Positions 42,000-52,817 of a stretch of DNA of 64,000 bases are shown piece by piece; positions within the stretch are counted from its first letter, which is position 1; every line of letters begins with the position of its first letter. The stretch comes from a virus (Duplodnaviria; Heunggongvirae; Uroviricota; Caudoviricetes): positions 1 through 64,000 of IMG/VR virus record IMGVR_UViG_3300038393_003162. One strand, written 5' to 3'. The notes under the pieces were generated by a model. It was not told the origin of the DNA. It saw nothing but the letters and a program-made list of their open reading frames with translations, and made no database searches. The position numbers and the translations under genes were made by a program.

Positions 42000-42272
42000 T
42001 CAGTCTCGCTCCCCGATCAGTTCCAAAAGCATCTTGGGATCAACCAACTTCAAGTCGTTGATGAACGTCATCGCCCGGTCATAGCCACCGAGAAGCTCGT
42101 AAAGTCTCTCTGCGACCTCCTTGTACTCACAGTCCAGCCAGCACGGCTCCGGTTCCTGGTCCAATGCCTTGTATTTGAACTCATGAAGATGCTCGGAGAT
42201 GGTCTCAATCTCGTTCACTCTCGCCGACAACCCGTTGGGAAATTCCCTGATTTTTTCTTGTTTTTTATCCAT
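42000..42272 (-). CDS. hypothetical acidic protein
   Basis: 90-aa ORF starting 40 nt after a solitary repeat. Confidence 0.55.
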   Translation of the reverse strand: MDKKQEKIREFPNGLSARVNEIETISEHLHEFKYKALDQEPEPCWLDCEYKEVAERLYELLGGYDRAMTFINDLKLVDPKMLLELIGERD

Positions 42273-42311: not shown

Positions 42312-42347
42312 GTGCTATAAACCTTGAGAATAATCAAGATTCTGCAC
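42312..42347 (-). CRISPR. solitary degenerate copy of the array-1 repeat
   Basis: GTGCTATAAACCTTGAGAATAATCAAGATTCTGCAC, 227 bp beyond the array end. Confidence 0.8.
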
Positions 42348-42574: not shown

Positions 42575-43189
42575 GTGCTATGCCTATCGAGAATAATCAA
42601 TAGGCTGCACTCTTGAGCAACCGCTTCAAAGGGTTCTTTGGGATGTGCTATGCCTATTGAGAATAATCAGTAGGCTGCACGCAATAACCCTATCAGGATC
42701 GTCGCCAAGAGACTTCGTGCTATGCCTATTGAGAATAATCAATAGGCTGCACCTGTTTCGAAGACGAGTTTGGTGGATGGGTCGCTTGGTGCTATGCCTA
42801 TTGAGAATAATCAGTAGGCTGCACCCCACCAGTAATGTTGGAGGCACCACCATTCAAAGTGTGCTATGCCTATCGAGAATAATCAATAGGCTGCACTAGA
42901 TCAGGCGGTTCCATAGATCAGAGTTGATCTCGTGCTATGCCTATCGAGAATAATCAATAGGCTGCACCACCTTGAGGGCTTGGAGATCCTCAAACAGAGC
43001 CGTGTGCTATGCCTATCGAGAATAATCAATAGGCTGCACAGGCGTCCTTTGATCCTAAGTTAGCATGGGAATATGTGCTATGCCTATCGAGAATAATCAA
43101 TAGGCTGCACCTGCTGCCGGGCTTATTGTGAGTATGTGAGTAGCGGGCTCCAAGTGCTATGCCTATCGAGAATAATCAATAGGCTGCAC
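42575..43189 (-). CRISPR. CRISPR array 1 (type V): 9 repeats of 36 bp, 8 spacers of 34-43 bp
   Basis: minus-strand repeat GTGCAGCCTATTGATTATTCTCGATAGGCATAGCAC; plus-strand starts 42575, 42645, 42717, 42789, 42861, 42932, 43004, 43075, 43154; leader between the array and the cas gene. Confidence 0.97.
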
Positions 43190-43326
43190 TGGGGTTTTCT
43201 AACCTATTAACCGACAAAGGGTTGCGATTCTACTTTTCAAGCATCTCGTGATGTTGCCTGTTGGGATTTAAAGTATGCCTGTTTACCATGAGATATCATT
43301 GCCCTAAGTCGGTATTGTTTTTGAGT

Positions 43327-46101
43327 TTAAGCCGAATCAAGCATCTCTTGTGGGGTGATATTGCTGGAAGTTGGTGTTTGCCAGAGGGTTAGATGCGATT
43401 TATCGTCATTTGGCTGTTGTTGCTGGGAGGTCCATGATTCCTTAAGTTCCTTTCGCAAGAGTTGATGCTGTTTCCATGGCAACCACTCATCATAGTGTCT
43501 ATAGAACGGGCGTCTATTGGTTCCTTGTGCGTGGCTGGCGTATTCCTTGAGTTTCTTGGCTGTGACTTCCTCTAGTTCTCCTACGAGGTTTTTGCCGAGT
43601 TTGAGGACGAAGGTGTTGTATCCGAGTCTGGTCATAGCGGCTTTGAATCGTTTGCCCTCTTGATCGGGGACATAGAGGGATCGCGGTTCGATGCCATCCT
43701 TGACGACGGTTCTCATCCAGATCGAGTTGGCATCCTGATATCTGGTCCAGAATCTTCGTTGAAGGTTCTGTGCGGCATTGAGGTCTGAGTCGACCGTGGT
43801 CACATTGCCTTCCCTCTGGACGTAGAGGATTTCCTTCTCATTCTCGTCCCTGAATCCGTACTCACCGGTCTGGGCATCGATCTGTGAGGAATCCCTCGGG
43901 TCGATGAGTTGGAGAGCGATCCCGTGGGGCGTGAGGAAGTCCACGAGGTAATTCTTGATTTCCCTTGCCGACCAGACTTCGAGCAACTGGTTTTCCTGTT
44001 TGGTTCGTGCGAGCGAGAACTTGAAGTTTTCGAGGTCTTCGATGAGGACGACGTGTGCCTGTTGATAGAGTGCGTAGTGTGCGATAGCGGCGGCGATCTT
44101 CTTGATTTGGTCCTTCTTGATGTTCCTGAGGGTTCTGAGATGTCTGGAGAAGTGCCTTGGGTCTCTCCGTAGTCCCGGCTGGAGTGGTTCTTGGTCTTTG
44201 TATCTCCATGACTTCATGAGGGAGATGTATTTTTTGTAGACCATGATATACTTGATTGAGTCGGCTGAGACGCCTGTATGCCTGTGGGTATAAGTTCTCA
44301 GGTTCCTGAAATGTCTGGCGATATTGCCGATTGTGCTGTTGAGTTCGTTGAGGAGGTCATAGGGTTGGCTCGTGGGATTGATTCCGGCGAGCTTGAATGC
44401 CTTGTCGTAAGGTTTGAGGTCTTCGTCTTGGTTTTTCTGTAGGTCTTTATAGAGGTAGATGAGTTTCTTAGCGGCGTAGATCTTGTCGTCGAGGTTCTTG
44501 ATTTGGTCTACGAATTCTTGGGAGTGGATGGTCCCGATCTTGATTTCCTCGATCTTGGTGGCTTGCCCGAGGTTGGGTACTTGGTAATCGTCTTTTGTGG
44601 CTGTGTGATTGTCTTTGAGTTGATAGGTTGTGAGGGCGAGTGTCGGATTGATGTTGAGGTCGACGGAGATTGCCTTGAGACCTACCTTGATGTCTGGGAG
44701 ATATTGGTCAGCTTTCTTGTCATTTGCGGCGGTGTTGAAGTAGGTGATGGTATTCTTAAGAGGCTTGAAGTCGAGGGCTTGGTTGCCTTTCTTGTCGGTC
44801 TTGTAGTTCTCATAGAGTGGGTCATTGAATTTGGTCTGGACATTGAGTGGGAGCGAGAGGTAGACTTGCCCGAGGTATCCGTTGGCGAAGTTGGTTGGAT
44901 CGATGGTCCTGAGCAGTTGGTTATTGAATCTGAGATAGGGTTCTTTAAGGATGGCGGTCGTGGGAGTTTGCCTGAGGTTTCCGGTTTTGTATTGGAACTG
45001 GAAGTTCTTAGTTCCCTTGATCGGTTGGATTTCGAGGTCGATGAAGTATCTTGATGGCAGGAGTTCGAGGGTATGGGACTTGAGTTGGGTGATATTCCTA
45101 TGGTCTAGAAGTTCGAGGGTTGCGTAGAGTTTGCTATTGGTTTGCTTGATGGAGAATCCGAGGTAATTTTCCCCGAAGTGAGCGTCTTGGGGGAGATTGT
45201 GCGTGTGGGGGGTTGGGACGCTGGCGTTTTGCTTTGCGTCTTCGTTGAGATATCTGACGGCTTCATCTCTTTCAGTGAAGAGGGCGATGAAGTCGATTTC
45301 CTGGAGGTTGAGCCAGAGGTCTTGATATTGGTCTTGAAGTAGGTTGTAGGGTGTTTGGTTGGGGGCTTGCCCTTTGATGAGTTTCTGCCTGGTTTTTTGC
45401 CATCGTGCGAGGAATTTGGCATTTGCCTTGAACTTGGGGTCTTGTTCGGCTTGCTGCTTCCATTCCTGGTAGAGATTCTCTTGGGTGGGGAATTGATTGG
45501 CGTGGTCGACGATCTTCTGTGTGTCTTCTTTTAGGGCTTGATACTCTTTCTGGGTATTTTCATCGTTGGCTCGCCAGTTGCGGAAGAGTGCGATTGCGGC
45601 GCAATATGCGGACTTGTGTAACTTGAAGGGGAGTTGCTTGGTGTTATTGGTGTTAGTCAGTGGGAAGATATTTTCATCCCAGAGTTTTCTCAATGCCTTG
45701 AGTGGGGGCGAGGCGTTTTCTTTGCCGCCCGATTCGATGAGGCTGCCGTTTTCCTTGAATCTCCTTGCGAGCATTGCCTGGTAATAGAATGGATTTGGGT
45801 CTTTTTGGATACCATCGATGAGTTGGTCGAAGAGTGGGAATGCCTGGTCGGGGTCCATGTGCTTGGCGTAGTTGGTTCTCTTCTGGTCGAGTAGTTCTTG
45901 GGAGACTTGCTCGCCTTTGGTGGTGGTATAAGGCTGGTTGTTAAGGGTCATGAAGAGGTCAAAGAGTTGTGCAACCAGATCATTGTGGCAGATGTGTGTC
46001 GCGGCGATATCCTTCCGGACCTCGTCGGGGATGAATCGGAACCTGAGGTTGGTACTCTTGAGGCACGCGGGCTTGAGGCTGTTGTCTTTATCGTTTGCCA
46101 T
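43327..46101 (-). CDS. cas12: type V CRISPR effector, Cas12b/Cas12h-related, 924 aa
   Basis: RuvC-I AISVDLNIN, RuvC-II VLIEDLENF, ENQLLEVWS, SSQIDAQTG, RuvC-III DSDLNAAQNLQRRFW; adjacent array with a repeat ending in GCAC. Confidence 0.9.
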   Translation of the reverse strand: MANDKDNSLKPACLKSTNLRFRFIPDEVRKDIAATHICHNDLVAQLFDLFMTLNNQPYTTTKGEQVSQELLDQKRTNYAKHMDPDQAFPLFDQLIDGIQKDPNPFYYQAMLARRFKENGSLIESGGKENASPPLKALRKLWDENIFPLTNTNNTKQLPFKLHKSAYCAAIALFRNWRANDENTQKEYQALKEDTQKIVDHANQFPTQENLYQEWKQQAEQDPKFKANAKFLARWQKTRQKLIKGQAPNQTPYNLLQDQYQDLWLNLQEIDFIALFTERDEAVRYLNEDAKQNASVPTPHTHNLPQDAHFGENYLGFSIKQTNSKLYATLELLDHRNITQLKSHTLELLPSRYFIDLEIQPIKGTKNFQFQYKTGNLRQTPTTAILKEPYLRFNNQLLRTIDPTNFANGYLGQVYLSLPLNVQTKFNDPLYENYKTDKKGNQALDFKPLKNTITYFNTAANDKKADQYLPDIKVGLKAISVDLNINPTLALTTYQLKDNHTATKDDYQVPNLGQATKIEEIKIGTIHSQEFVDQIKNLDDKIYAAKKLIYLYKDLQKNQDEDLKPYDKAFKLAGINPTSQPYDLLNELNSTIGNIARHFRNLRTYTHRHTGVSADSIKYIMVYKKYISLMKSWRYKDQEPLQPGLRRDPRHFSRHLRTLRNIKKDQIKKIAAAIAHYALYQQAHVVLIEDLENFKFSLARTKQENQLLEVWSAREIKNYLVDFLTPHGIALQLIDPRDSSQIDAQTGEYGFRDENEKEILYVQREGNVTTVDSDLNAAQNLQRRFWTRYQDANSIWMRTVVKDGIEPRSLYVPDQEGKRFKAAMTRLGYNTFVLKLGKNLVGELEEVTAKKLKEYASHAQGTNRRPFYRHYDEWLPWKQHQLLRKELKESWTSQQQQPNDDKSHLTLWQTPTSSNITPQEMLDSA

Positions 46102-46154
46102 GGTTGGTTGATTTCTGTTATGTGGTTAGTTTTGTGCGACTGATTATACGTTGT

Positions 46155-46189
46155 GTGCTGTAGACCTCAGGTATAATTGAGTCTTGCAT
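46155..46189 (-). CRISPR. second solitary degenerate array-1-type repeat upstream of cas12
   Basis: GTGCTGTAGACCTCAGGTATAATTGAGTCTTGCAT; about 24/36 identical to the 42312 copy, with compensatory stem CTCA/TGAG. Confidence 0.55.
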
Positions 46190-46356
46190 GATTCATGACT
46201 TGGGGAGACATTTATTTCAGCCTCCCCAAGTCATGGTTTAATTCTAGCATAAGTCTTATTTGGTGTCTAGGTCAATTGTTGTTGTTTTAGGGTCTAAAAC
46301 TCGATCAGAGTCTCTTGTCGGCGATCTCGATAGTGTTCGCCGACGAGATTGCGGCT

Positions 46357-46563
46357 TTAGTTGTACAGGATGTATAGGTCTTCGAGCGTCTGCACTCCCA
46401 CCTGGTAGAGCATCTTATAGATTGAGTATTCGAGGAGTTCGTATCCTTCGCTAGGGAGATAGTCCTTGGTGCTATGGAGTATGCCTTGGTATTGGTCGAC
46501 GATTGCCTTGAATGCTGGGATGTTCTTGAGTTGTTCTAATTCATGTTCTTGTGCTTCTGTCAC
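46357..46563 (-). CDS. hypothetical protein
   Basis: GTG start with AAGGA RBS. Confidence 0.5.
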   Translation of the reverse strand: MTEAQEHELEQLKNIPAFKAIVDQYQGILHSTKDYLPSEGYELLEYSIYKMLYQVGVQTLEDLYILYN

Positions 46564-46808
46564 AGGACATATCCTTCCGTAAGTGACTTATTGATTTTTC
46601 TTTGGATTTCCTGACAGTCGTCCTTCACCTGTTTGGTCATGTGGCTGACGACGGCTTGTTCGTAGGCGTTGAACGCGGCATCGATTAGGGCTTCATCGTC
46701 TTTCCTCCATAAACGCCCTCTACGAGACTTCTATCATGGGTACGGGGGATTCGTCGTTTTACCTGTCCGGATCGCGTCACGGGGCTTCTGGGAGCCTTCC
46801 TGGGCATC

Positions 46809-47360
46809 CTAGCCTGGGGCATTGGGTTCGGAGATCATTTCGTTTTTCCTTCTGAAGTTTTGGATATAGGATTTGAGGTTTTGGAGTTGGGTTTGTTGTT
46901 GTTCATTTTGTTGTTTATTTGGGATGAGTAAGTCGTATGAATCCTGTGCGAGTTTTATCATTATTTTCATGTTTGTTGTGTCATTGGCTGTGAATTGTAA
47001 TTGGTGCAGTTGGACTTTGGTTCTATAGTGGATTTGGTTGTCGTTCTTGGTTTCCCAGATATAGAGTCTAGGTTTTAGGGTTGAGGAGGTGGTAATGACG
47101 AAGTGGAGAGAGTGGTCTGTGTGATTTGGATGTTTGGTCTGATAGTGTTTCGCGGGTTCCCAAGAGGTCTTGATATTTTCGTTGATTTTTTTGAGGGAGT
47201 CATTGATGTGTTCTTTTCTGTCGATTTCCACGAGGTGTTTATTTTTCATGGTATAGACGGCGTCGATTGTGGAGATATAGGTTGTATTTTCTTGTTGATT
47301 CTGCTTGATGAAGGCGAGGTCCCAGCGGGCGAGATTCTTGGGGATAGTGGTATACATCAA
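46809..47360 (-). CDS. C-terminal-signature family protein
   Basis: LQNLKSYIQNFRRK; close paralog of the next ORF. Confidence 0.75.
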   Translation of the reverse strand: MMYTTIPKNLARWDLAFIKQNQQENTTYISTIDAVYTMKNKHLVEIDRKEHINDSLKKINENIKTSWEPAKHYQTKHPNHTDHSLHFVITTSSTLKPRLYIWETKNDNQIHYRTKVQLHQLQFTANDTTNMKIMIKLAQDSYDLLIPNKQQNEQQQTQLQNLKSYIQNFRRKNEMISEPNAPG

Positions 47361-47929
47361 TATTTCCTTCTGAAGTCATGGACCTGGGATTTGAGGTTTT
47401 GGAGTTGGGTTTGTTGTTTGAGGTCTTGTGGATTCTGGGTGATTTCGGTCTGTTGTGTTTCTTTGGTCTTGCAGGATTGTGCGGTTCTTCTTTGGACATC
47501 TTTGAGTGCGGCTGGGACATTATCGGAGTAGGTATAGGTTCTGAATGGGCGTTTGAGGTCTTTGTAGGTGAAGTGTTGCGCGTGGTTGTATTGGAACGGG
47601 ACATCGAGTACGTAGAGTTTGAGTGTATGGCTGTGTGGTGTGGCGAAGAAGTGGAGTGAGTGGTCTGGGTGATTTGGGTTTGTGGTCTGATAGTGCCTGA
47701 TAGTTTCCCAGAGGAGTGTGCTTTCTATTTTTTTGTGGTCGATTTGGTCGAAGAGGGTGCAGGCGTAGCTGCCCTTGTCGGCTTTTTCGAGGTGATGGTG
47801 TTGGAGTGTGAAGATGATGGAGTCGTAGGTGATGTAGGTAATTTCTTCGATTTGGATTTTGTAGGCATAATCCCAATTTTGGATTTCGGGTACATTCATT
47901 CGATTATTTTCTCCGGTAGCGTGTATCAT
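47357..47929 (-). CDS. C-terminal-signature family protein
   Basis: LQNLKSQVHDFRRKY. Confidence 0.75.
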   Translation of the reverse strand: MIHATGENNRMNVPEIQNWDYAYKIQIEEITYITYDSIIFTLQHHHLEKADKGSYACTLFDQIDHKKIESTLLWETIRHYQTTNPNHPDHSLHFFATPHSHTLKLYVLDVPFQYNHAQHFTYKDLKRPFRTYTYSDNVPAALKDVQRRTAQSCKTKETQQTEITQNPQDLKQQTQLQNLKSQVHDFRRKY

Positions 47930-47944
47930 GTATTTTGTTCCGAC

Positions 47945-48469
47945 TCATTCGATTTGCATCGAGTTGCTTTGCCTGAAGGTTTGGATTGCCTTGAGGGTTT
48001 CTTGTTTGTATTGGTCTTGATTGTGCTTATGTTTATGCTTGGTTGGTTCGAGGGAATCGAAGGCTTGCTTGAATGCGTAGTAGGCGTTGGGGATCGAGAA
48101 TCTTTCGTAGGTTCCGATGACCTGGGTGGCGGCGAGGTTGTTTGGGTCGAATCGTCTTGAGATGAGTGTGGGGTTATCCCGCTGGGGCTTGTAGAGGAGA
48201 TAGGCGAGGATTTGCCCGTTCTCGATGGTGGGGTGCGGGAGTTCGATTGCCTGGATACTGTCGATGTTATTGGGCGACGGCTTGTAATAGTTGACGAGGT
48301 CGTTATAGGCTTGGTGCCTGTCGTAACTGGCGTGGAGGGTTTTGATTTGGTCGATATTGTTCATAAAGGGATTGACGGTGTAGAGGTATTTGTCGGTGAT
48401 GATGAAGGTGCTGCCGGGGGTGACGATGAAATAGGCTTGGGTCCAGTTGTAGAGTGGTGGGACGGGCAT
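47945..48469 (-). CDS. C-terminal-signature family protein
   Basis: MPVPPLYNW...KQETLKAIQTFRQ. Confidence 0.75.
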   Translation of the reverse strand: MPVPPLYNWTQAYFIVTPGSTFIITDKYLYTVNPFMNNIDQIKTLHASYDRHQAYNDLVNYYKPSPNNIDSIQAIELPHPTIENGQILAYLLYKPQRDNPTLISRRFDPNNLAATQVIGTYERFSIPNAYYAFKQAFDSLEPTKHKHKHNQDQYKQETLKAIQTFRQSNSMQIE

Positions 48470-48479
48470 TGTGTTGGTC

Positions 48480-48974
48480 CTAGTAATTGGTTCGGAAGTG
48501 GTTGATTGCTTTCTTGAGGTCTTGTTTGCGTTGGATCTGGGTGTTTGTGGTGTCATCTTGCGGCGGCTTACCTATGAGGCTGTCGTATATCTTCTGGGCG
48601 GTGGCGACGACTTGGTCCTTTTGGAGTTTGATCTGGATATGGGCTTGTTGTTGGTCGGTCTCGTAGGGTGAGAAGTGATAGAGTGCGAAGTAGCTGGAGA
48701 TATTGATGTCGGGGATGGCGACGAAGAGTCTCGGCTTCGAGGCGAATAGCCTGTGATATTTTGCCGGTTTCCAGTCGAGCTTACCTTCTTTCAGGTCGAT
48801 TTCCTGCTTGATTCGAAGGTACGAGAAGTTATAGACTGTGTTTTGGGTGATGGCACCCGAGAACCGGTCGATGCAGAATACTCTGGTGGTGGTGACGATG
48901 TATCGTTTATCGGGGGTGTAAGCGGTCTGGGCATCGATCCATTGGTCTAGCTCAGGAAAATTTTTGCGTGGCAT
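48480..48974 (-). CDS. C-terminal-signature family protein
   Basis: KQDLKKAINHFRTNY. Confidence 0.75.
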   Translation of the reverse strand: MPRKNFPELDQWIDAQTAYTPDKRYIVTTTRVFCIDRFSGAITQNTVYNFSYLRIKQEIDLKEGKLDWKPAKYHRLFASKPRLFVAIPDINISSYFALYHFSPYETDQQQAHIQIKLQKDQVVATAQKIYDSLIGKPPQDDTTNTQIQRKQDLKKAINHFRTNY

Positions 48975-49026
48975 TTTCGTCGATCCTGTTAGTTGACGAG
49001 TCCGCGTGGGTTTAGTTTATTTGGTC

Positions 49027-49536
49027 TCAGGGGTTTAGGGTCCGGAAATTGTCGATAATATTCCTGAGGGATTTCCTGTTGGTTTCCTTGAATTGGGCGA
49101 CTTCCTCTGGCTCTTGGGCTGGGGGATAGAATTGGTCGAAGAATTCCTGGAGGAGTCTATGGTCGCGAGAGAGTGATCCAGCGGCGAATTCGAACCGGTT
49201 GGTTGGTCCTAGGTGGTTGGGTTTACTCCTCGTGAAGACGCGGACGACGTTCGTGTAGGTTTGCTCATTGTAAGTGAGGAGGAGTTGGAGGTAGTTCTCC
49301 GGTTCGTCGGGGTGAGGGAACCCCAAGTGGCGGAAGTAGAATGTCTTGGTGTTCACGGTTGCGTCCCTGATCGCCTGGAACTTCTGGGTCCTGGATTTGT
49401 GGGGGACTGCCGTGAACACCTGGTCTTTGTTATTAGTGAGTATATATGCATATTCTTCGGTGACGAAATAGGTGTAAAGATCGGTTTGGATGGCTTTGGC
49501 GATGAGCCACTGGCTGAAGGGCGGTATGACGGGCAT
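49027..49536 (-). CDS. C-terminal-signature family protein
   Basis: RKSLRNIIDNFRTLNP. Confidence 0.75.
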   Translation of the reverse strand: MPVIPPFSQWLIAKAIQTDLYTYFVTEEYAYILTNNKDQVFTAVPHKSRTQKFQAIRDATVNTKTFYFRHLGFPHPDEPENYLQLLLTYNEQTYTNVVRVFTRSKPNHLGPTNRFEFAAGSLSRDHRLLQEFFDQFYPPAQEPEEVAQFKETNRKSLRNIIDNFRTLNP

Positions 49537-49545
49537 TTTTAGTCC

Positions 49546-50031
49546 TTAAAAATTGGCTTCCCGGAAGTGTTTTGCTGCGCGGATGACATCCTGCCGGAAC
49601 TGTCGTTGTTGGTCGGTGTTCATTTTAACATTTATGGGTTTTTTGTCAAGGAATCTCCGGAGGATCTCGTTAGCTTTGGGGATGATTTCGGGTCCTTTGA
49701 GGCTGGCGACGATTTTGGCATAAACATCAGGCTTATTCGGGTCGAAGTGGTAGAGGAAGGTTCCCAGGAACGTGGTGGTTGGAATGAGTATGAAATGGAG
49801 TTGGTCGTTTTGGTCATTGATGTAGGCTTCGGTCCAGAGGAGGTTTTGGTGGACGGAGGTCTCGATGGCTTGGATCGTATTCAGCACGTGGTAGATGGGC
49901 TGGTCGTAGATGATCCGATTGGTATTGCGGTTGGTCTGGATGAGTCGATTGTCGGTGACGACGTACCTTGTGTCGATGGTATGAGCGGTTTTGGCTTTGG
50001 TCCATTGGTCGAGTCCGGAAATCTCTGGCAT
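49546..50031 (-). CDS. C-terminal-signature family protein
   Basis: RQDVIRAAKHFREANF. Confidence 0.75.
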   Translation of the reverse strand: MPEISGLDQWTKAKTAHTIDTRYVVTDNRLIQTNRNTNRIIYDQPIYHVLNTIQAIETSVHQNLLWTEAYINDQNDQLHFILIPTTTFLGTFLYHFDPNKPDVYAKIVASLKGPEIIPKANEILRRFLDKKPINVKMNTDQQRQFRQDVIRAAKHFREANF

Positions 50032-50042
50032 CTTTTGGTCCT

Positions 50043-50570
50043 TTAGAAATTGGCTCTTCGGAAGTCGGCGATTGCCTGCTGGATGGTTTTGCGATAGACC
50101 AGCAAGGATTCCTGGTTCTGGATTTCCTTGAGTGATTGCTTGTGTTTGTATATTTCATTGGCTTTGATGGCGGCGACGGTGAGGGTCGCGTGGTTTTCGA
50201 TCTGGACTTGCTTGGTGACGGGATCGATGAGGATGAGTTGCACTTGGTCGGTCGTCACGACGACATATTCCGGGAACTCTGCGTCTTTCTCTGACGGTTT
50301 TGCGGAGCTACCGCAGTCGGCGTAGGCGACGTTGAGGTCGACCGGCAGAGTTTCGTAGGCTTTGATGATCTCCTCGTGGTGGGAGAATCTGCGGGGTTCC
50401 TCGGAAGCGGTCATGCTGTTCGGGTCGATCTTGAGTATCTTCCAAGGGTTCATGGGGTGGTCATTGCTGAAGTAGGTGATGAGGTAGGGGGTACCGGGTG
50501 TCGCATGTTTCACCGGGACGAACACCTTAATCATGGTCCAGCCGATATCATAGATCGATCGTTTGGGCAT
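50043..50570 (-). CDS. C-terminal-signature family protein
   Basis: RKTIQQAIADFRRANF. Confidence 0.75.
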   Translation of the reverse strand: MPKRSIYDIGWTMIKVFVPVKHATPGTPYLITYFSNDHPMNPWKILKIDPNSMTASEEPRRFSHHEEIIKAYETLPVDLNVAYADCGSSAKPSEKDAEFPEYVVVTTDQVQLILIDPVTKQVQIENHATLTVAAIKANEIYKHKQSLKEIQNQESLLVYRKTIQQAIADFRRANF

Positions 50571-50580
50571 TGTATGGGTC

Positions 50581-51087
50581 CTAATAATTAATTCTGAAGT
50601 TATGAATAGCTTGTTGGACGGTATGCTTGTTCTGGAGGAGTCGTCGTTGATTGGTCTCTTGGGGTTTGTCCGATAGTCCGGATACCAGCCGTTCGGCTGT
50701 GACGAATTGGAGTGCGTTCCGGTTGAGGCTGGAATAGTACAGGATGTTCGTTTCGTTCTTGCGATGACGGACATAGGTCATGTGGTATTTGAGCCAAGGG
50801 TTTGTCTGGGTTCGCTCATGGATGAAGAAATAGTGTTGCTCCAGGGTATGCCAGTCGATGTGGCATGAGACCAGGGCATCTTTCTTCCACGAGAGGTTCT
50901 CTGCGGGTTCTCCGAGTATAGTCGTGACCCAAGAAACCGCTTGATCGCGGGTGGCATTCGATCGCGAACGGAATAAATTACACTGCTGGTTGATGACATA
51001 GGAAATGGGCATATTTCCTTGCAGCAGGAAGGCGAATAGACCTCTAGGGTCATCGAGGACTTCGGCATTCATCCATTGGAGGGGCAT
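50581..51087 (-). CDS. C-terminal-signature family protein
   Basis: MPLQW...KHTVQQAIHNFRINY. Confidence 0.75.
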   Translation of the reverse strand: MPLQWMNAEVLDDPRGLFAFLLQGNMPISYVINQQCNLFRSRSNATRDQAVSWVTTILGEPAENLSWKKDALVSCHIDWHTLEQHYFFIHERTQTNPWLKYHMTYVRHRKNETNILYYSSLNRNALQFVTAERLVSGLSDKPQETNQRRLLQNKHTVQQAIHNFRINY

Positions 51088-51098
51088 TGTTTGGTCCT

Positions 51099-51674
51099 TT
51101 AGAAACTGGTCCTGAAATTCTCGATGGCATTCTTGAGGTCTTGTTTGTTCTGGATGAGTTTTTCGGGGTCCGGGTCTGGTTGTTTCGGGACTGATTTCGG
51201 GCGCGGCTTGGGCATGTAGCTTTTCTCCTGTGCCGTGAAGGTGAGTTCCTCGGCGAGTGTGTGAGCGGCGGTCATACTTGGCAGGTACCATTTGTGGATC
51301 TGCCTTGAGTTCTTGCTGCTGGTGTAGACATAGAGCAAGCAATACGGGTTGGCTTCAAACCGTGCTTTCGAAATCTCGCTGGGGAAGGTGTCGGGCGGTG
51401 TCCGGCGAAAGGCATAGAACTGGACATTTTCGAGCGTATTCTCGGTCATGTCGATGGCATGGTTGGCATCATCGGACCACTTGAGTTCGGCGGCAGTGGT
51501 CTCGAATTTCTCGGACACGTAGCTTTCGAGTTGATTCGGCGTCGCGTGGACCTTGGCATCCACGTCGGTCGTGATCGTGTTGATGGTATAAGTATGCGAA
51601 GAGTGTTGGAAGCAAAGGACGTTTTGCTTCGACGGTTTTTCAAACACTCTTATCGGGGACCATTTTAATGGCAT
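51099..51674 (-). CDS. C-terminal-signature family protein
   Basis: MPLKW...KQDLKNAIENFRTSF. Confidence 0.75.
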   Translation of the reverse strand: MPLKWSPIRVFEKPSKQNVLCFQHSSHTYTINTITTDVDAKVHATPNQLESYVSEKFETTAAELKWSDDANHAIDMTENTLENVQFYAFRRTPPDTFPSEISKARFEANPYCLLYVYTSSKNSRQIHKWYLPSMTAAHTLAEELTFTAQEKSYMPKPRPKSVPKQPDPDPEKLIQNKQDLKNAIENFRTSF

Positions 51675-51695
51675 CTTGTGTTCCTTTGATTTGAT

Positions 51696-52817
51696 TCACT
51701 TGATAAGGTCGCGGAAATTCTGGATCGCCTTGAGGGTGGTTTCCTTGTTCTGGACGAGTTGCTGTTGGTCCGGTTCCCGAGGCTCGTCATCCAGTCGCTT
51801 CTTTCGCCTATACGAATACGAAAAATTCTCAATATACGAGGAATATTTCCTGGTCGAAAACTTCCCGAAAGTGGAAAGGTGGTTGAAGTTGAAAGTATAA
51901 CTTTGGTTTTGGTTGAATGTGTCGGCGTCGTGCTTGTCGGCAGCGGTCTTGGCATCCATCAGGAGATTGAATACTTGCGTGGTATTATGGGTTGCCTGGG
52001 TGTCTTCATGTCCGAGCGTGTAGAGGGTGTAAAGATTTTTCTTGTCAGCCGAGCAAACTTCGATGAAATAAAAGATATTCTTCGACAAGTCTGTGTTTCT
52101 GGTACACACGACCGAGTGTTTCGTGTATCCGCCTGGGAGCTTTGCCTTGGCATGAGCCTCGATAGCGGCGATGTAATTAAAGTCAAGACACTCGACCTTG
52201 ACAGTGCAGTCGTTGGGGGTAAAGAAGAAAGCCTTGAGGATCGGGTCATCACCCGACTTCGAAGTCGCGATGAAGCAATGCGGTTCGTCGGGGTTATTGG
52301 GCTTAAGGAGGAATCCCGATCGCCAGACGAGGAGATTCTCGGGATTCTTCTTGGTCGGGGCTTGGTCTTGGATGACTTCCGTGATTTCGGTTTGGTCTGG
52401 CATCGTTTCTTGCCCTTCGTTGGTCGATGCGTTGTTAAGGATGTTGTTGGCTGTTTTGATGACATCATCCTTGGAGTCGCAAATCACTTGGGTCGGAATG
52501 TTCTTGGAGTTAGCATCAAAATGGACGAGAAGGAATTCCTCCGTGGGAGTTCGTTTGTAGAAGAAAATATGCCCCTTACTTTCGGAGAATGCGACTGCAT
52601 ACTTCCACTGGAGAGTGCGACCGGCTCTCGCCTCGGCGTCGTCGGTCGCGGTGGAAATGAGCATGAACGTCTGGCTATAATGATGGTGTTCCTGTTTGCT
52701 GAGGATATGGAGGCGAGGGGTCCAAGTCGAGGTGTTGATGAAATAATAATGGGAATCGGTCTCTGCGACCTTACAGTAGTCCCACGCGAGAACTTGTCCT
52801 TGGTCTGGCATAGTCAT
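51696..52817 (-). CDS. C-terminal-signature family protein (double length)
   Basis: KETTLKAIQNFRDLIK. Confidence 0.75.
   Translation of the reverse strand: MTMPDQGQVLAWDYCKVAETDSHYYFINTSTWTPRLHILSKQEHHHYSQTFMLISTATDDAEARAGRTLQWKYAVAFSESKGHIFFYKRTPTEEFLLVHFDANSKNIPTQVICDSKDDVIKTANNILNNASTNEGQETMPDQTEITEVIQDQAPTKKNPENLLVWRSGFLLKPNNPDEPHCFIATSKSGDDPILKAFFFTPNDCTVKVECLDFNYIAAIEAHAKAKLPGGYTKHSVVCTRNTDLSKNIFYFIEVCSADKKNLYTLYTLGHEDTQATHNTTQVFNLLMDAKTAADKHDADTFNQNQSYTFNFNHLSTFGKFSTRKYSSYIENFSYSYRRKKRLDDEPREPDQQQLVQNKETTLKAIQNFRDLIK

Follow-up and report, generated by a model that had tools for sequence, protein, structure and literature searches.

A phage-borne type V CRISPR locus with a divergent Cas12 effector and solitary repeat-like hairpins upstream of phage genes

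Does a compact type V effector, carried by a phage next to its own CRISPR array, act solely as a guided nuclease, or may it also bind lone copies of its repeat elsewhere in the phage genome? We addressed this question in a 64-kb window and in the 253-kb virus record (IMG/VR) to which it belongs, which is only 43% complete, the other 57% of the phage genome perhaps being absent. The record displays the traits of a huge phage (>200 kb, 34 tRNAs, IF3, two tRNA synthetases and a T4-like RNA ligase); scans of 65 and of 40 of its ~327 ORFs revealed no capsid, portal or terminase gene, and the search for a host gave none. The reading that we favor, with a probability of about 60%, is a minimal type V system in which hairpin crRNAs would guide the effector, and in which solitary repeat units would provide further binding sites. 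These units, rather than the effector, are the more unusual part of the locus.

The effector and its relatives

The effector gene (43327..46101, minus strand) is open across 924 aa, and one contig of soil run X2 covers positions 43161-46600 with zero differing letters. As claimed by the sequence-only reading that preceded this work, the RuvC D-E-D triad (D481/E688/D773) is intact, with the motifs VDLN (480), IEDL (687) and DSDLNAA (771); D481 and E688 are invariant across 23 aligned relatives, and D773 in a 9-row alignment. That reading had also quoted two Cas12b-style motifs, of which SSxxDAxTG is present as given, while the other reads ENxLLxxW, one residue longer than ENxLLxW. A single split RuvC with its D-E-D triad, adjoining a CRISPR array, identifies the locus as type V, and a low-confidence atlas model of the protein (pTM 0.55) suggests a C2c1/Cas12f-like neighborhood. 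A weak tblastn match near 230.7 kb of the genome was considered as a second effector and judged not to be one.

The best family HMM for the effector is Cas12b (NF033949, PF22126), with 86.2 bits against an NCBIfam cut-off of 150. Full-length profile matches connect the protein to four known clades, and its nearest full-length relatives share ~24–28% identity with it. Our trees, built with 79 and 111 of the 151 collected proteins excluded and with backbones that are unresolved, place it outside the Cas12b, Cas12h, Cas12X2 and Cas12j19 clades, with Cas12X2 and a close Cas12j19 relative among the tree proteins, and with 100/100 support for each of the Cas12b, Cas12X2 and Cas12j19 clades. The profile matches and the trees, together with the huge-phage traits of the record, thus support the proposal of a divergent, V-B- and V-H-related effector, which on its sequence is a deep new branch of the already known Cas12b/Cas12h/Cas12X/Cas12j19 radiation. 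The novelty of kind implied by the further suggestion of a possible new clade is overstated: 20 other proteins score below 1e-30 against the effector, and the size and locus type are already occupied by Cas-delta, Cas12h1 and Cas12X/Cas12X2/Cas12j19. In addition, a 982-aa protein of the Cas12b clade has been reported from a soil huge phage (PMC11748809). We found no locus of a close relative in the viral contigs or in INPHARED phages. A metagenome scan recovered 35 loci, apparently Cas12b proper, with complete ORFs mostly of 1089–1251 aa, which served as controls only.

The absence of adaptation genes, previously stated for the vicinity of the array, extends to the whole 253-kb record, in which, at 43% completeness, no cas1, cas2 or cas4 was detected by a test in which control genomes scored. 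Spacer acquisition would presumably rely on Cas1-Cas2 of the host or on genes that lie in the portion of the genome absent from the record.

The array, its hairpin repeat and its spacers

The array (42575..43189, minus strand as inferred) comprises nine repeats, as had been described, each of 36 nt, six of them identical, one with one change and two with two changes, separated by eight spacers of 34–36 nt, bar one of 43 nt. The internal stem quoted before corresponds to the minus-strand reading, in which the repeat forms a closed hairpin of 13 pairs with a fold z score of −6.2; its self-fold of −16.6 kcal/mol compares with −2.3 to −13.7 for 16 Cas12b-type repeats. One repeat variant folds better on the plus strand. 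The plus-strand orientation of the array is less likely, given that the repeat and the two clear solitary units described below fold better on the minus strand; most likely, the array is read from the minus strand, with a repeat that forms a closed hairpin.

A gap of 137 nt (43190..43326, minus strand), a putative leader, separates the effector stop from the first repeat. Between gene and array, no canonical anti-repeat was found on the sense strand (leader −16.8, best shuffle −23.2), using a test that flags 10 of 16 Cas12b-type control loci and misses 6; on the opposite strand, pairing between leader and repeat is about as strong as in the best shuffle (−26.3 vs −26.5). No Rfam family was detected in the window or around infC. 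Cas12h1 works with a 36-nt stem-loop that lacks a 5′ flank (PMC11830025). The self-paired repeat and the lack of a sense-strand anti-repeat above shuffles agree with the earlier expectation that the system is probably tracr-free, and we consider it quite likely that the effector is a tracr-free guided DNase or nickase. According to this model, the array would be read on the strand of the gene, each 36-nt repeat forming a closed stem held by the protein, as in Cas12h1 with its 36-nt repeat, and the effector would be guided without tracrRNA to cut or nick foreign DNA.

We found that one spacer (42825..42860, minus strand) has a protospacer on another contig, present in runs X2, X5 and X7, i.e., in three of the four soil runs covered by the search, of 10 listed. 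Its 5′ flank, in crRNA sense, ends in CCTT; the hint of a T-rich PAM rests on one old spacer, with four mismatches over 40 nt and one at spacer position 3. Apart from this protospacer, the spacer search that had been suggested gave nothing above chance in phages and in plasmids, and exact-pattern scans of viral contigs with two of the eight spacers and one target flank returned no match. The targets would be other DNAs of the same soils, beside a T-rich PAM as inferred from this single protospacer. A role in inter-phage competition, put forward by the sequence-only reading, gains no support from the sole protospacer-bearing contig (5.6 kb in run X5), which was assignable to neither phage nor host. 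The array's own spacer at 42681-42716 shows a partial match of 24 of 29 positions at 46309..46337 (plus strand), ~205 nt upstream of the effector start, a score reached by none of 120 shuffled spacers.

Solitary repeat-like units and their possible roles

The previous statement that there is no anti-repeat stood for a canonical one, and overlooked solitary repeat-like units, of which the record holds two clear ones (B and C) and a weak one (A) besides the array. B and C are lone repeat-like copies outside the array that keep the hairpin, as in the solitary repeat units (SRUs) described elsewhere. Unit B (42312..42347, minus strand) lies at the trailer end of the array, 39 nt upstream of a putative gene of 90 aa with no known family (ORF 42000..42272, minus strand), and shares the dot-bracket structure of the repeat on the minus strand only. 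All nine of its substitutions fall in the 9-bp stem with every pair kept, three pairs being changed on both sides; only 2 of 2,000,000 random draws of nine changes fell entirely in stems with all pairs kept. The covariation count rests on four rows and is reached by 7 of 500 shuffles.

Unit C, ~200 kb from the locus, sits directly against the predicted ribosome-binding site of the phage gene for IF3 (infC), ending one base before its Shine-Dalgarno-like AAGGA; the GTG start of this gene is backed by close IF3 homologues. A model built without unit C recovered it (E = 0.002). It keeps nine of nine inner pairs and retains the 10-pair stem, the loop and the 3′ end, having lost most of the terminal stem and gained a 2-nt insertion. 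For IF3 relatives with DNA, we found none in viral contigs, and three distant bacterial genes at 43–46%. The units rest on one genome, since the search for loci of close relatives gave none.

Unit A (46155..46189, minus strand) lies in the effector 5′ region, 53 nt upstream of the ATG. It is weak (E = 3.3 genome-wide, 0.27 in 20.8 kb), its descriptor score is reached by 1 of 40 shuffled genomes, and its fold is slightly more stable on the plus strand (−9.1 vs −7.1). Directly 5′ of it is a 16-bp hairpin (46194..46235, minus strand), which closely follows the best match to a sigma70-like promoter (46241..46269, minus strand; 10/12 with TG, a consensus match only), in a region with eight sigma70-like sites against 5.3 in shuffles. 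Units A, B and C thus precede same-strand starts by 53, 39 and 12 nt, respectively; 16–22% of intergenic positions are that near a start, and since unit A was found by looking there, two units count. Across IMG/VR, the repeat motif gave 29 matches, all single, without a stem and with no Cas12 nearby, the inner pairs being kept in 0 of 29, and we treat these matches as probable chance occurrences.

From the preserved structure of units B and C, it is reasonably probable that the effector binds them. That such binding regulates the downstream mRNAs is a good deal more doubtful. Free effector would bind or process the leaders carrying solitary units, and on unit C it would cover the IF3 ribosome site because the unit ends one base before AAGGA. 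Extended to its full form, this model would turn a Cas12 into an RNA-level regulator, in which free effector binds or cuts hairpins in the cas12, small-ORF and IF3 leaders, coupling effector supply, crRNA load and the takeover of translation initiation, a scheme that we put forward as slightly more tentative still.

Other explanations of the units are less probable. The units might be CreR/Cracr-type guides, a processed crRNA-like RNA steering the effector to repress a promoter of the phage, the host or a competitor, with the host infC start region as a possible target for unit C. In type V-A systems, two reports describe single degenerate repeats with a short-match guide that repress cas12a promoters (10.1101/2023.03.10.532045, 10.1101/2024.10.29.618823); the solitary units do retain the spacer-proximal 3′ end, and huge-phage spacers may target host transcription and translation genes (PMC7162821). 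However, the longest seed matches of four pseudo-spacers in the phage genome span 9–10 nt, and in four promoter/leader regions no best-scoring site has a run of more than 5 nt, whereas CreR/Cracr pseudo-spacers match a cas promoter at ~10 or more PAM-proximal positions. Self-targeting of this type within the available phage genome was therefore rejected for want of a promoter target. Moreover, the “guide” of unit C would be the IF3 gene's own ribosome site and start codon, and we consider such guides unlikely.

Less likely again, the units could be decoys that titrate free effector and leave the adjoining genes unaffected (SRU/Racr-like), as has been proposed for the SRUs that precede cas12a, for which no conserved target was identified (10.1101/2023.03.03.530964). 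Decoys would account for a preserved structure followed by sequence that lacks a target, but they leave unexplained why the units lie so close (12, 39 and 53 nt) ahead of starts on the same strand. To the same low degree, they might be relics of array duplication or recombination beside an effector that is a plain anti-competitor nuclease, as the sequence-only reading had it: unit B sits at the trailer end, where repeats decay, unit A is weak, and remnant SRUs have been described in Francisella (10.1101/2023.03.03.530964), but decay would neither confine all nine changes to the stem without breaking a single pair nor preserve the loop, 3′ end and a 10-pair stem ~200 kb away. Least probable is a Cas12b-like, tracrRNA-dependent system whose anti-repeat is transcribed from the plus strand across either unit B or unit A, or across the leader. 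In its favor, Cas12b is the best family HMM, pairing between the repeat and plus-strand unit B reaches −36.6 kcal/mol, the leader plus strand equals the best shuffle and unit A folds slightly better on that strand. Against it, the repeat is fully self-paired, unlike Cas12b-type repeats, the changes in unit B keep its own stem but lower complementarity to the repeat, and the effector is outside the 100/100 Cas12b clade.

Comparison with known systems

Returning to the favored reading of a minimal, hairpin-guided type V system, its effector most resembles Cas12j19/Cas12-2/Cas12X (PDB 8XCA, 8XCC, 8WRU, 8ZQB) and Cas12X2 (PDB 8ZQC, 9IX6), which are the best matches both among solved structures (E = 4e-44 and 4.5e-27) and in profile-profile comparison (~800 columns, E = 3e-96 and 9e-71). 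These proteins have a similar size (908–957 aa vs 924), share ~24% identity with the effector, which falls in neither clade, and were compared by protein alone. Cas12b resembles it in the best family HMM, the RuvC motifs and an array downstream of the gene, but is larger (~1100–1250 aa), and the locus described here has no cas1-cas4/cas2, a self-paired repeat and an effector outside the Cas12b clade.

Cas12h shares the size of ~900 aa, the lack of an adaptation module and the 36-nt closed stem-loop repeat (PMC11830025). The effector is outside its clade (PADLOC profile score 74.5 bits vs 290–748 for members), and the Cas12h1 PAM is 5′-DHR (PMC11830025), while the single flank found here, from one mismatched protospacer, is T-rich. 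A purine-rich PAM of this kind and a preference for nicking are typical of Cas12h. The phage origin suggested by the authors of Cas12h1 (PMC11830025) fits our locus, such that a Cas12h1-like type of locus is now seen in a virus record. One Cas12h system worked solely as its native operon (10.64898/2026.03.27.714800). Cas-delta is alike in size (867–936 aa), in lacking cas1/2/4, in using crRNA only and in having Cas12b as its closest fold (PMC12721324), and its ~36-nt repeats, with GTGC start and GCAC(T) end (PMC12721324 Table S1), are of the same type as those described here. It differs in its RYR PAM and in its sources, which are sludge, marine and porewater metagenomes (PMC12721324); by eye, Cas-delta N-termini share a motif with Cas12h-scoring proteins that is absent from the effector, and Cas-delta was outside the sampling of our trees. 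In vitro, two of three Cas-delta proteins yielded no PAM (PMC12721324). To these families the effector adds a phage-borne, probably single-RNA, putative nuclease of less than 1000 aa between Cas12b, Cas12h and Cas12X, for which a probable repeat orientation and a PAM hint are already in hand.

The solitary units matter more than the effector, as one of them borders directly on the ribosome site of a gene that can be identified, and a simple reporter would suffice to assess its role. What lone repeats do in the vicinity of cas12 genes is still an open question (10.1101/2023.03.03.530964). Gene control through repeats inserted into 5′ UTRs has reportedly been engineered (PMC12191184); in the literature searched, we found neither natural Cas12 gene control through 5′-UTR repeats nor a distant translation gene with a solitary repeat, and preprint supplements might list more SRU cases. 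The closest parallels are the type V-A SRUs and CreR/Cracr, in which degenerate repeats likewise stand alone and retain their hairpin, with one such repeat located upstream of cas12 (10.1101/2023.03.03.530964; 10.1101/2023.03.10.532045; 10.1101/2024.10.29.618823). They differ from the units described here in effector lineage, in a promoter target, which was not found in the available phage genome, and in their stem letters, which are identical there and covary here; in addition, one of our units lies ~200 kb off, at the IF3 ribosome site. If regulation by the solitary units proves true, the phage would possess a naturally occurring Cas12 regulon of mRNAs that extends 200 kb past the CRISPR locus.

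A compact cas12 gene beside a self-folding repeat array

The ORF call and its translation place the effector gene (cas12, 924 residues) at 43327-46101 on the minus strand. Its RuvC acidic residues, D481, E688 and D773, sit in the motifs that the sequence-only reading had named; D481 and E688 are invariant across 23 aligned relatives, and D773 across 9 aligned sequences. One contig of soil metagenome run X2 spans the whole gene with zero differing letters, but this run is possibly the source sample of the record, so that the contig is not independent proof. In run X5, a single contig (depth about 4) has a 9-base in-frame insertion at 45637, either an allele or an error. At least half of the sampled words are contained in six of the ten listed runs, all from soil or rhizosphere.

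As the same reading had described, an array of nine repeats adjoins the gene. The repeats (42575-43189) are 36 nt long and start 137 nt beyond the stop codon; six are identical, and each of the other three differs by one or two changes. The consensus repeat folds on the minus strand into a closed hairpin of 13 pairs (-16.6 kcal/mol, z -6.2), compared with -13.6 on the plus strand, which gives a slightly better fold for one variant repeat. The variants lie at the gene-distal end of the array, as would be expected of a trailer. Self-folding of 16 Cas12b-type control repeats reached merely -2.3 to -13.7 kcal/mol, and in 10 of these 16 loci the pre-array sense strand beat the best of 10 shuffles in an anti-repeat test. 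The sense strand before the present array scored -16.8 vs -23.2 for its best shuffle, and the opposite strand equaled its best shuffle, the shuffles being sampled more coarsely than the real sequence. Because the repeat folds on itself and the sense strand pairs less well than its best shuffle, unlike in those 10 control loci, we favor, short of proof, a tracr-free system.

Solitary repeat-like hairpins outside the array

Genome-wide, the loop motif of the repeat has 12 matches, throughout on one strand, of which nine are the array and two are hairpins outside it. Two solitary units, B and C, both known from a single genome, show structure-preserving change. Unit B (42312-42347, minus strand) differs from the consensus repeat at nine positions, in the inner stem only, yet keeps all pairs, three of them changed on both sides; its fold is that of the repeat on the minus strand, and its plus-strand fold differs. 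Among 2,000,000 random nine-change draws, 1871 keep all pairs and 2 also have every change in stems, while the tool's own shuffle control for covariation is weaker (7 of 500 shuffles, four rows). The ORF downstream of unit B has no known relative.

Unit C lies outside the window, on the minus strand (G000:C1 246709-246748 in the whole record; L001 3710-3749), and was located by a covariance model trained on the array and unit B alone (E 0.002, roughly calibrated). It retains 9/9 inner pairs, two of them changed on both sides, together with the loop and the seven bases at the 3' end, and the outer stem is mostly lost; none of 29 chance IMG/VR matches to the same motif exceeds 7/9 pairs. Unit C ends 12 nt ahead of the GTG start of the IF3 gene (G000:C1 246154-246696), a start supported by close homologues, and a single base separates it from a Shine-Dalgarno-like AAGGA. 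Six retrieved IF3 proteins (P0156-P0161), all on short contigs, are 65-74% identical to the phage IF3, compared with about 50% for named bacterial IF3, and are probably from related phages.

A third unit, A (46155-46189), 53 nt ahead of the effector ATG and behind the best promoter match, is only a candidate, because it was spotted by eye, scores E 3.3 genome-wide (0.27 locally), is equaled in 1 of 40 shuffled genomes and folds slightly better on the plus strand. Long stable hairpins with GGGGAG in the 5' arm directly precede units A (46194-46235, -30.5 kcal/mol) and C (G000:C1 ~246750-246790, -21.8 kcal/mol). Each of the three units has a same-strand start no more than 55 nt downstream, as do 16-22% of intergenic positions, a placement independent of the search place for units B and C only.

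We propose that the crRNA alone would guide the effector, that the latter would cut or nick DNA next to a T-rich PAM, and that the same protein may bind the units, given that hairpin shape, loop and spacer-proximal end are what these conserve. Since unit C sits against the ribosome site, direct control of the mRNA through this unit may be the foremost reading of its role; we found no natural Cas12 case of mRNA control in the literature searched, in which subscription papers, patents and the supplements of bioRxiv preprints were mostly absent. Lone repeats without known target lie upstream of cas12a in about one-third of V-A loci, for which a decoy role was proposed (10.1101/2023.03.03.530964). 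CreR-type repression depends on a guide that matches a promoter (10.1101/2023.03.10.532045; 10.1101/2024.10.29.618823), and the unit guides have no such match in the 253-kb record, a search that excludes the host and the other 57% of the phage.

Spacer targets and genome context

The spacer at 42825-42860 has a protospacer on another contig, of phage or host, in runs X2, X5 and X7 and not in X8. The match is old and imperfect, with 4 mismatches over 40 nt (including 7 repeat bases) plus one at spacer position 3, and in crRNA sense its 5' flank ends in CCTT. The spacer search proposed earlier for deriving a PAM gave this one flank; matches in phages and plasmids did not exceed chance, and viral contigs, scanned for two of the eight spacers, held no exact match. 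Spacer 42681-42716 matches the phage's own DNA at 24 of 29 bases (46309-46337), with its first two bases mismatched; the site is some 205 nt before the start of the effector and upstream of the predicted cas12 promoter. None of 120 shuffled spacers reaches 24, which is marginal over eight spacers.

The record (253,022 bases, IMG/VR class "provirus," 43% complete), of which the window is the first 64 kb, encodes 34 tRNAs, IF3, two tRNA synthetases, a T4-like RNA ligase and an NAD ligase. Such genes have been described from huge phages (PMC7162821). Calling this genome a phage depends on the record and on these genes, because no capsid, portal or terminase was found among the ORFs scanned (65 with Pfam and 40 with PHROGs, out of about 327). 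The lack of cas1, cas2 and cas4 first noticed near the effector extends to the whole 253-kb record, by a search that scores in 6-8 of 14 control genomes.

Immediately upstream of cas12, tandem minus-strand ORFs without known family (46809-52817) share its strong strand skew, from which the DNA leftward differs, and 9 of 10 translated stretches close with a similar helix whose last residues are FR. A CUA-anticodon tRNA (ARAGORN: tRNA-Pyl) lies outside the main tRNA cluster (G000:C1 118149-118222); there is no sign of genome-wide recoding, coding density being 85% under table 11. The T4-like RNA ligase, an RlaP-type nucleotidyltransferase and Ro60 (G000:C1 121262-122356, 171317-172342 and 185976-187598) possibly form an RNA-repair set.

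Relation of the effector to known Cas12 proteins

Cas12b ranks first in a family profile search, at 86 bits vs a cut-off of 150. PADLOC gives 117 bits for Cas12b and 74.5 for Cas12h, whereas real members score 910-1117 and 290-748 bits, respectively (51 proteins scanned). The nearest solved structures are Cas12X2 (E 4e-44), then Cas12j19/Cas12-2/Cas12X (4.5e-27), with weaker matches to Cas12b (2.6e-17) and Cas12h1 (1.6e-3). Among 1.84 billion representatives, 242 proteins match at E <=0.001 and 21, the effector included, at <=1e-30; P0014 was identified as Cas12X2 and P0024 as a close Cas12j19 relative. A 90% cluster search returns only the effector itself. In trees of the RuvC lobe (72 rows) and of full-length proteins (40 rows), four groups (Cas12b, Cas12h, Cas12X2, Cas12j19) are all recovered with top support. 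The effector (P0001) falls inside none of them, grouping weakly (90/82) with four uncharacterized proteins on an unresolved backbone. Profile-profile alignments cover about 800 columns with each group, Cas12j19 being the best. From these profiles, trees and alignments, the effector probably works like these proteins, yet appears to be a member of none as tested. What had been observed from the sequence holds up, and the earlier V-B/V-H placement was broadly right in seeing a divergent relative, but the protein lies outside both clades and closer to the Cas12X2 and Cas12j19 structures.

As for the novelty then suggested, the best long alignments have 24-28% identity and the branch is new; its kind is already known. 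Cas-delta proteins (867-936 aa) lack adaptation genes, need crRNA only and use repeats of about 36 nt with four-base ends identical to those here, and no PAM was obtained for two of three members (PMC12721324). Cas12h1, for which its authors suggest a phage origin, holds a 36-nt stem-loop lacking a 5' flank and prefers nicking (PMC11830025). Cas12h-like proteins fall within the Cas12b subtree (PMC10691335), and a Cas12b-clade protein of 982 aa, with no accessory genes beside it, has been reported from a soil huge phage (PMC11748809). The portions covered of the 2025 classification name no variant matching the effector (PMC12669027). Given Cas-delta, Cas12h1 and the 982-aa protein, the effector is one further divergent protein in a radiation that is already under exploration, and the covarying solitary units, chiefly that before IF3, raise the interest of the locus above that of the effector alone.
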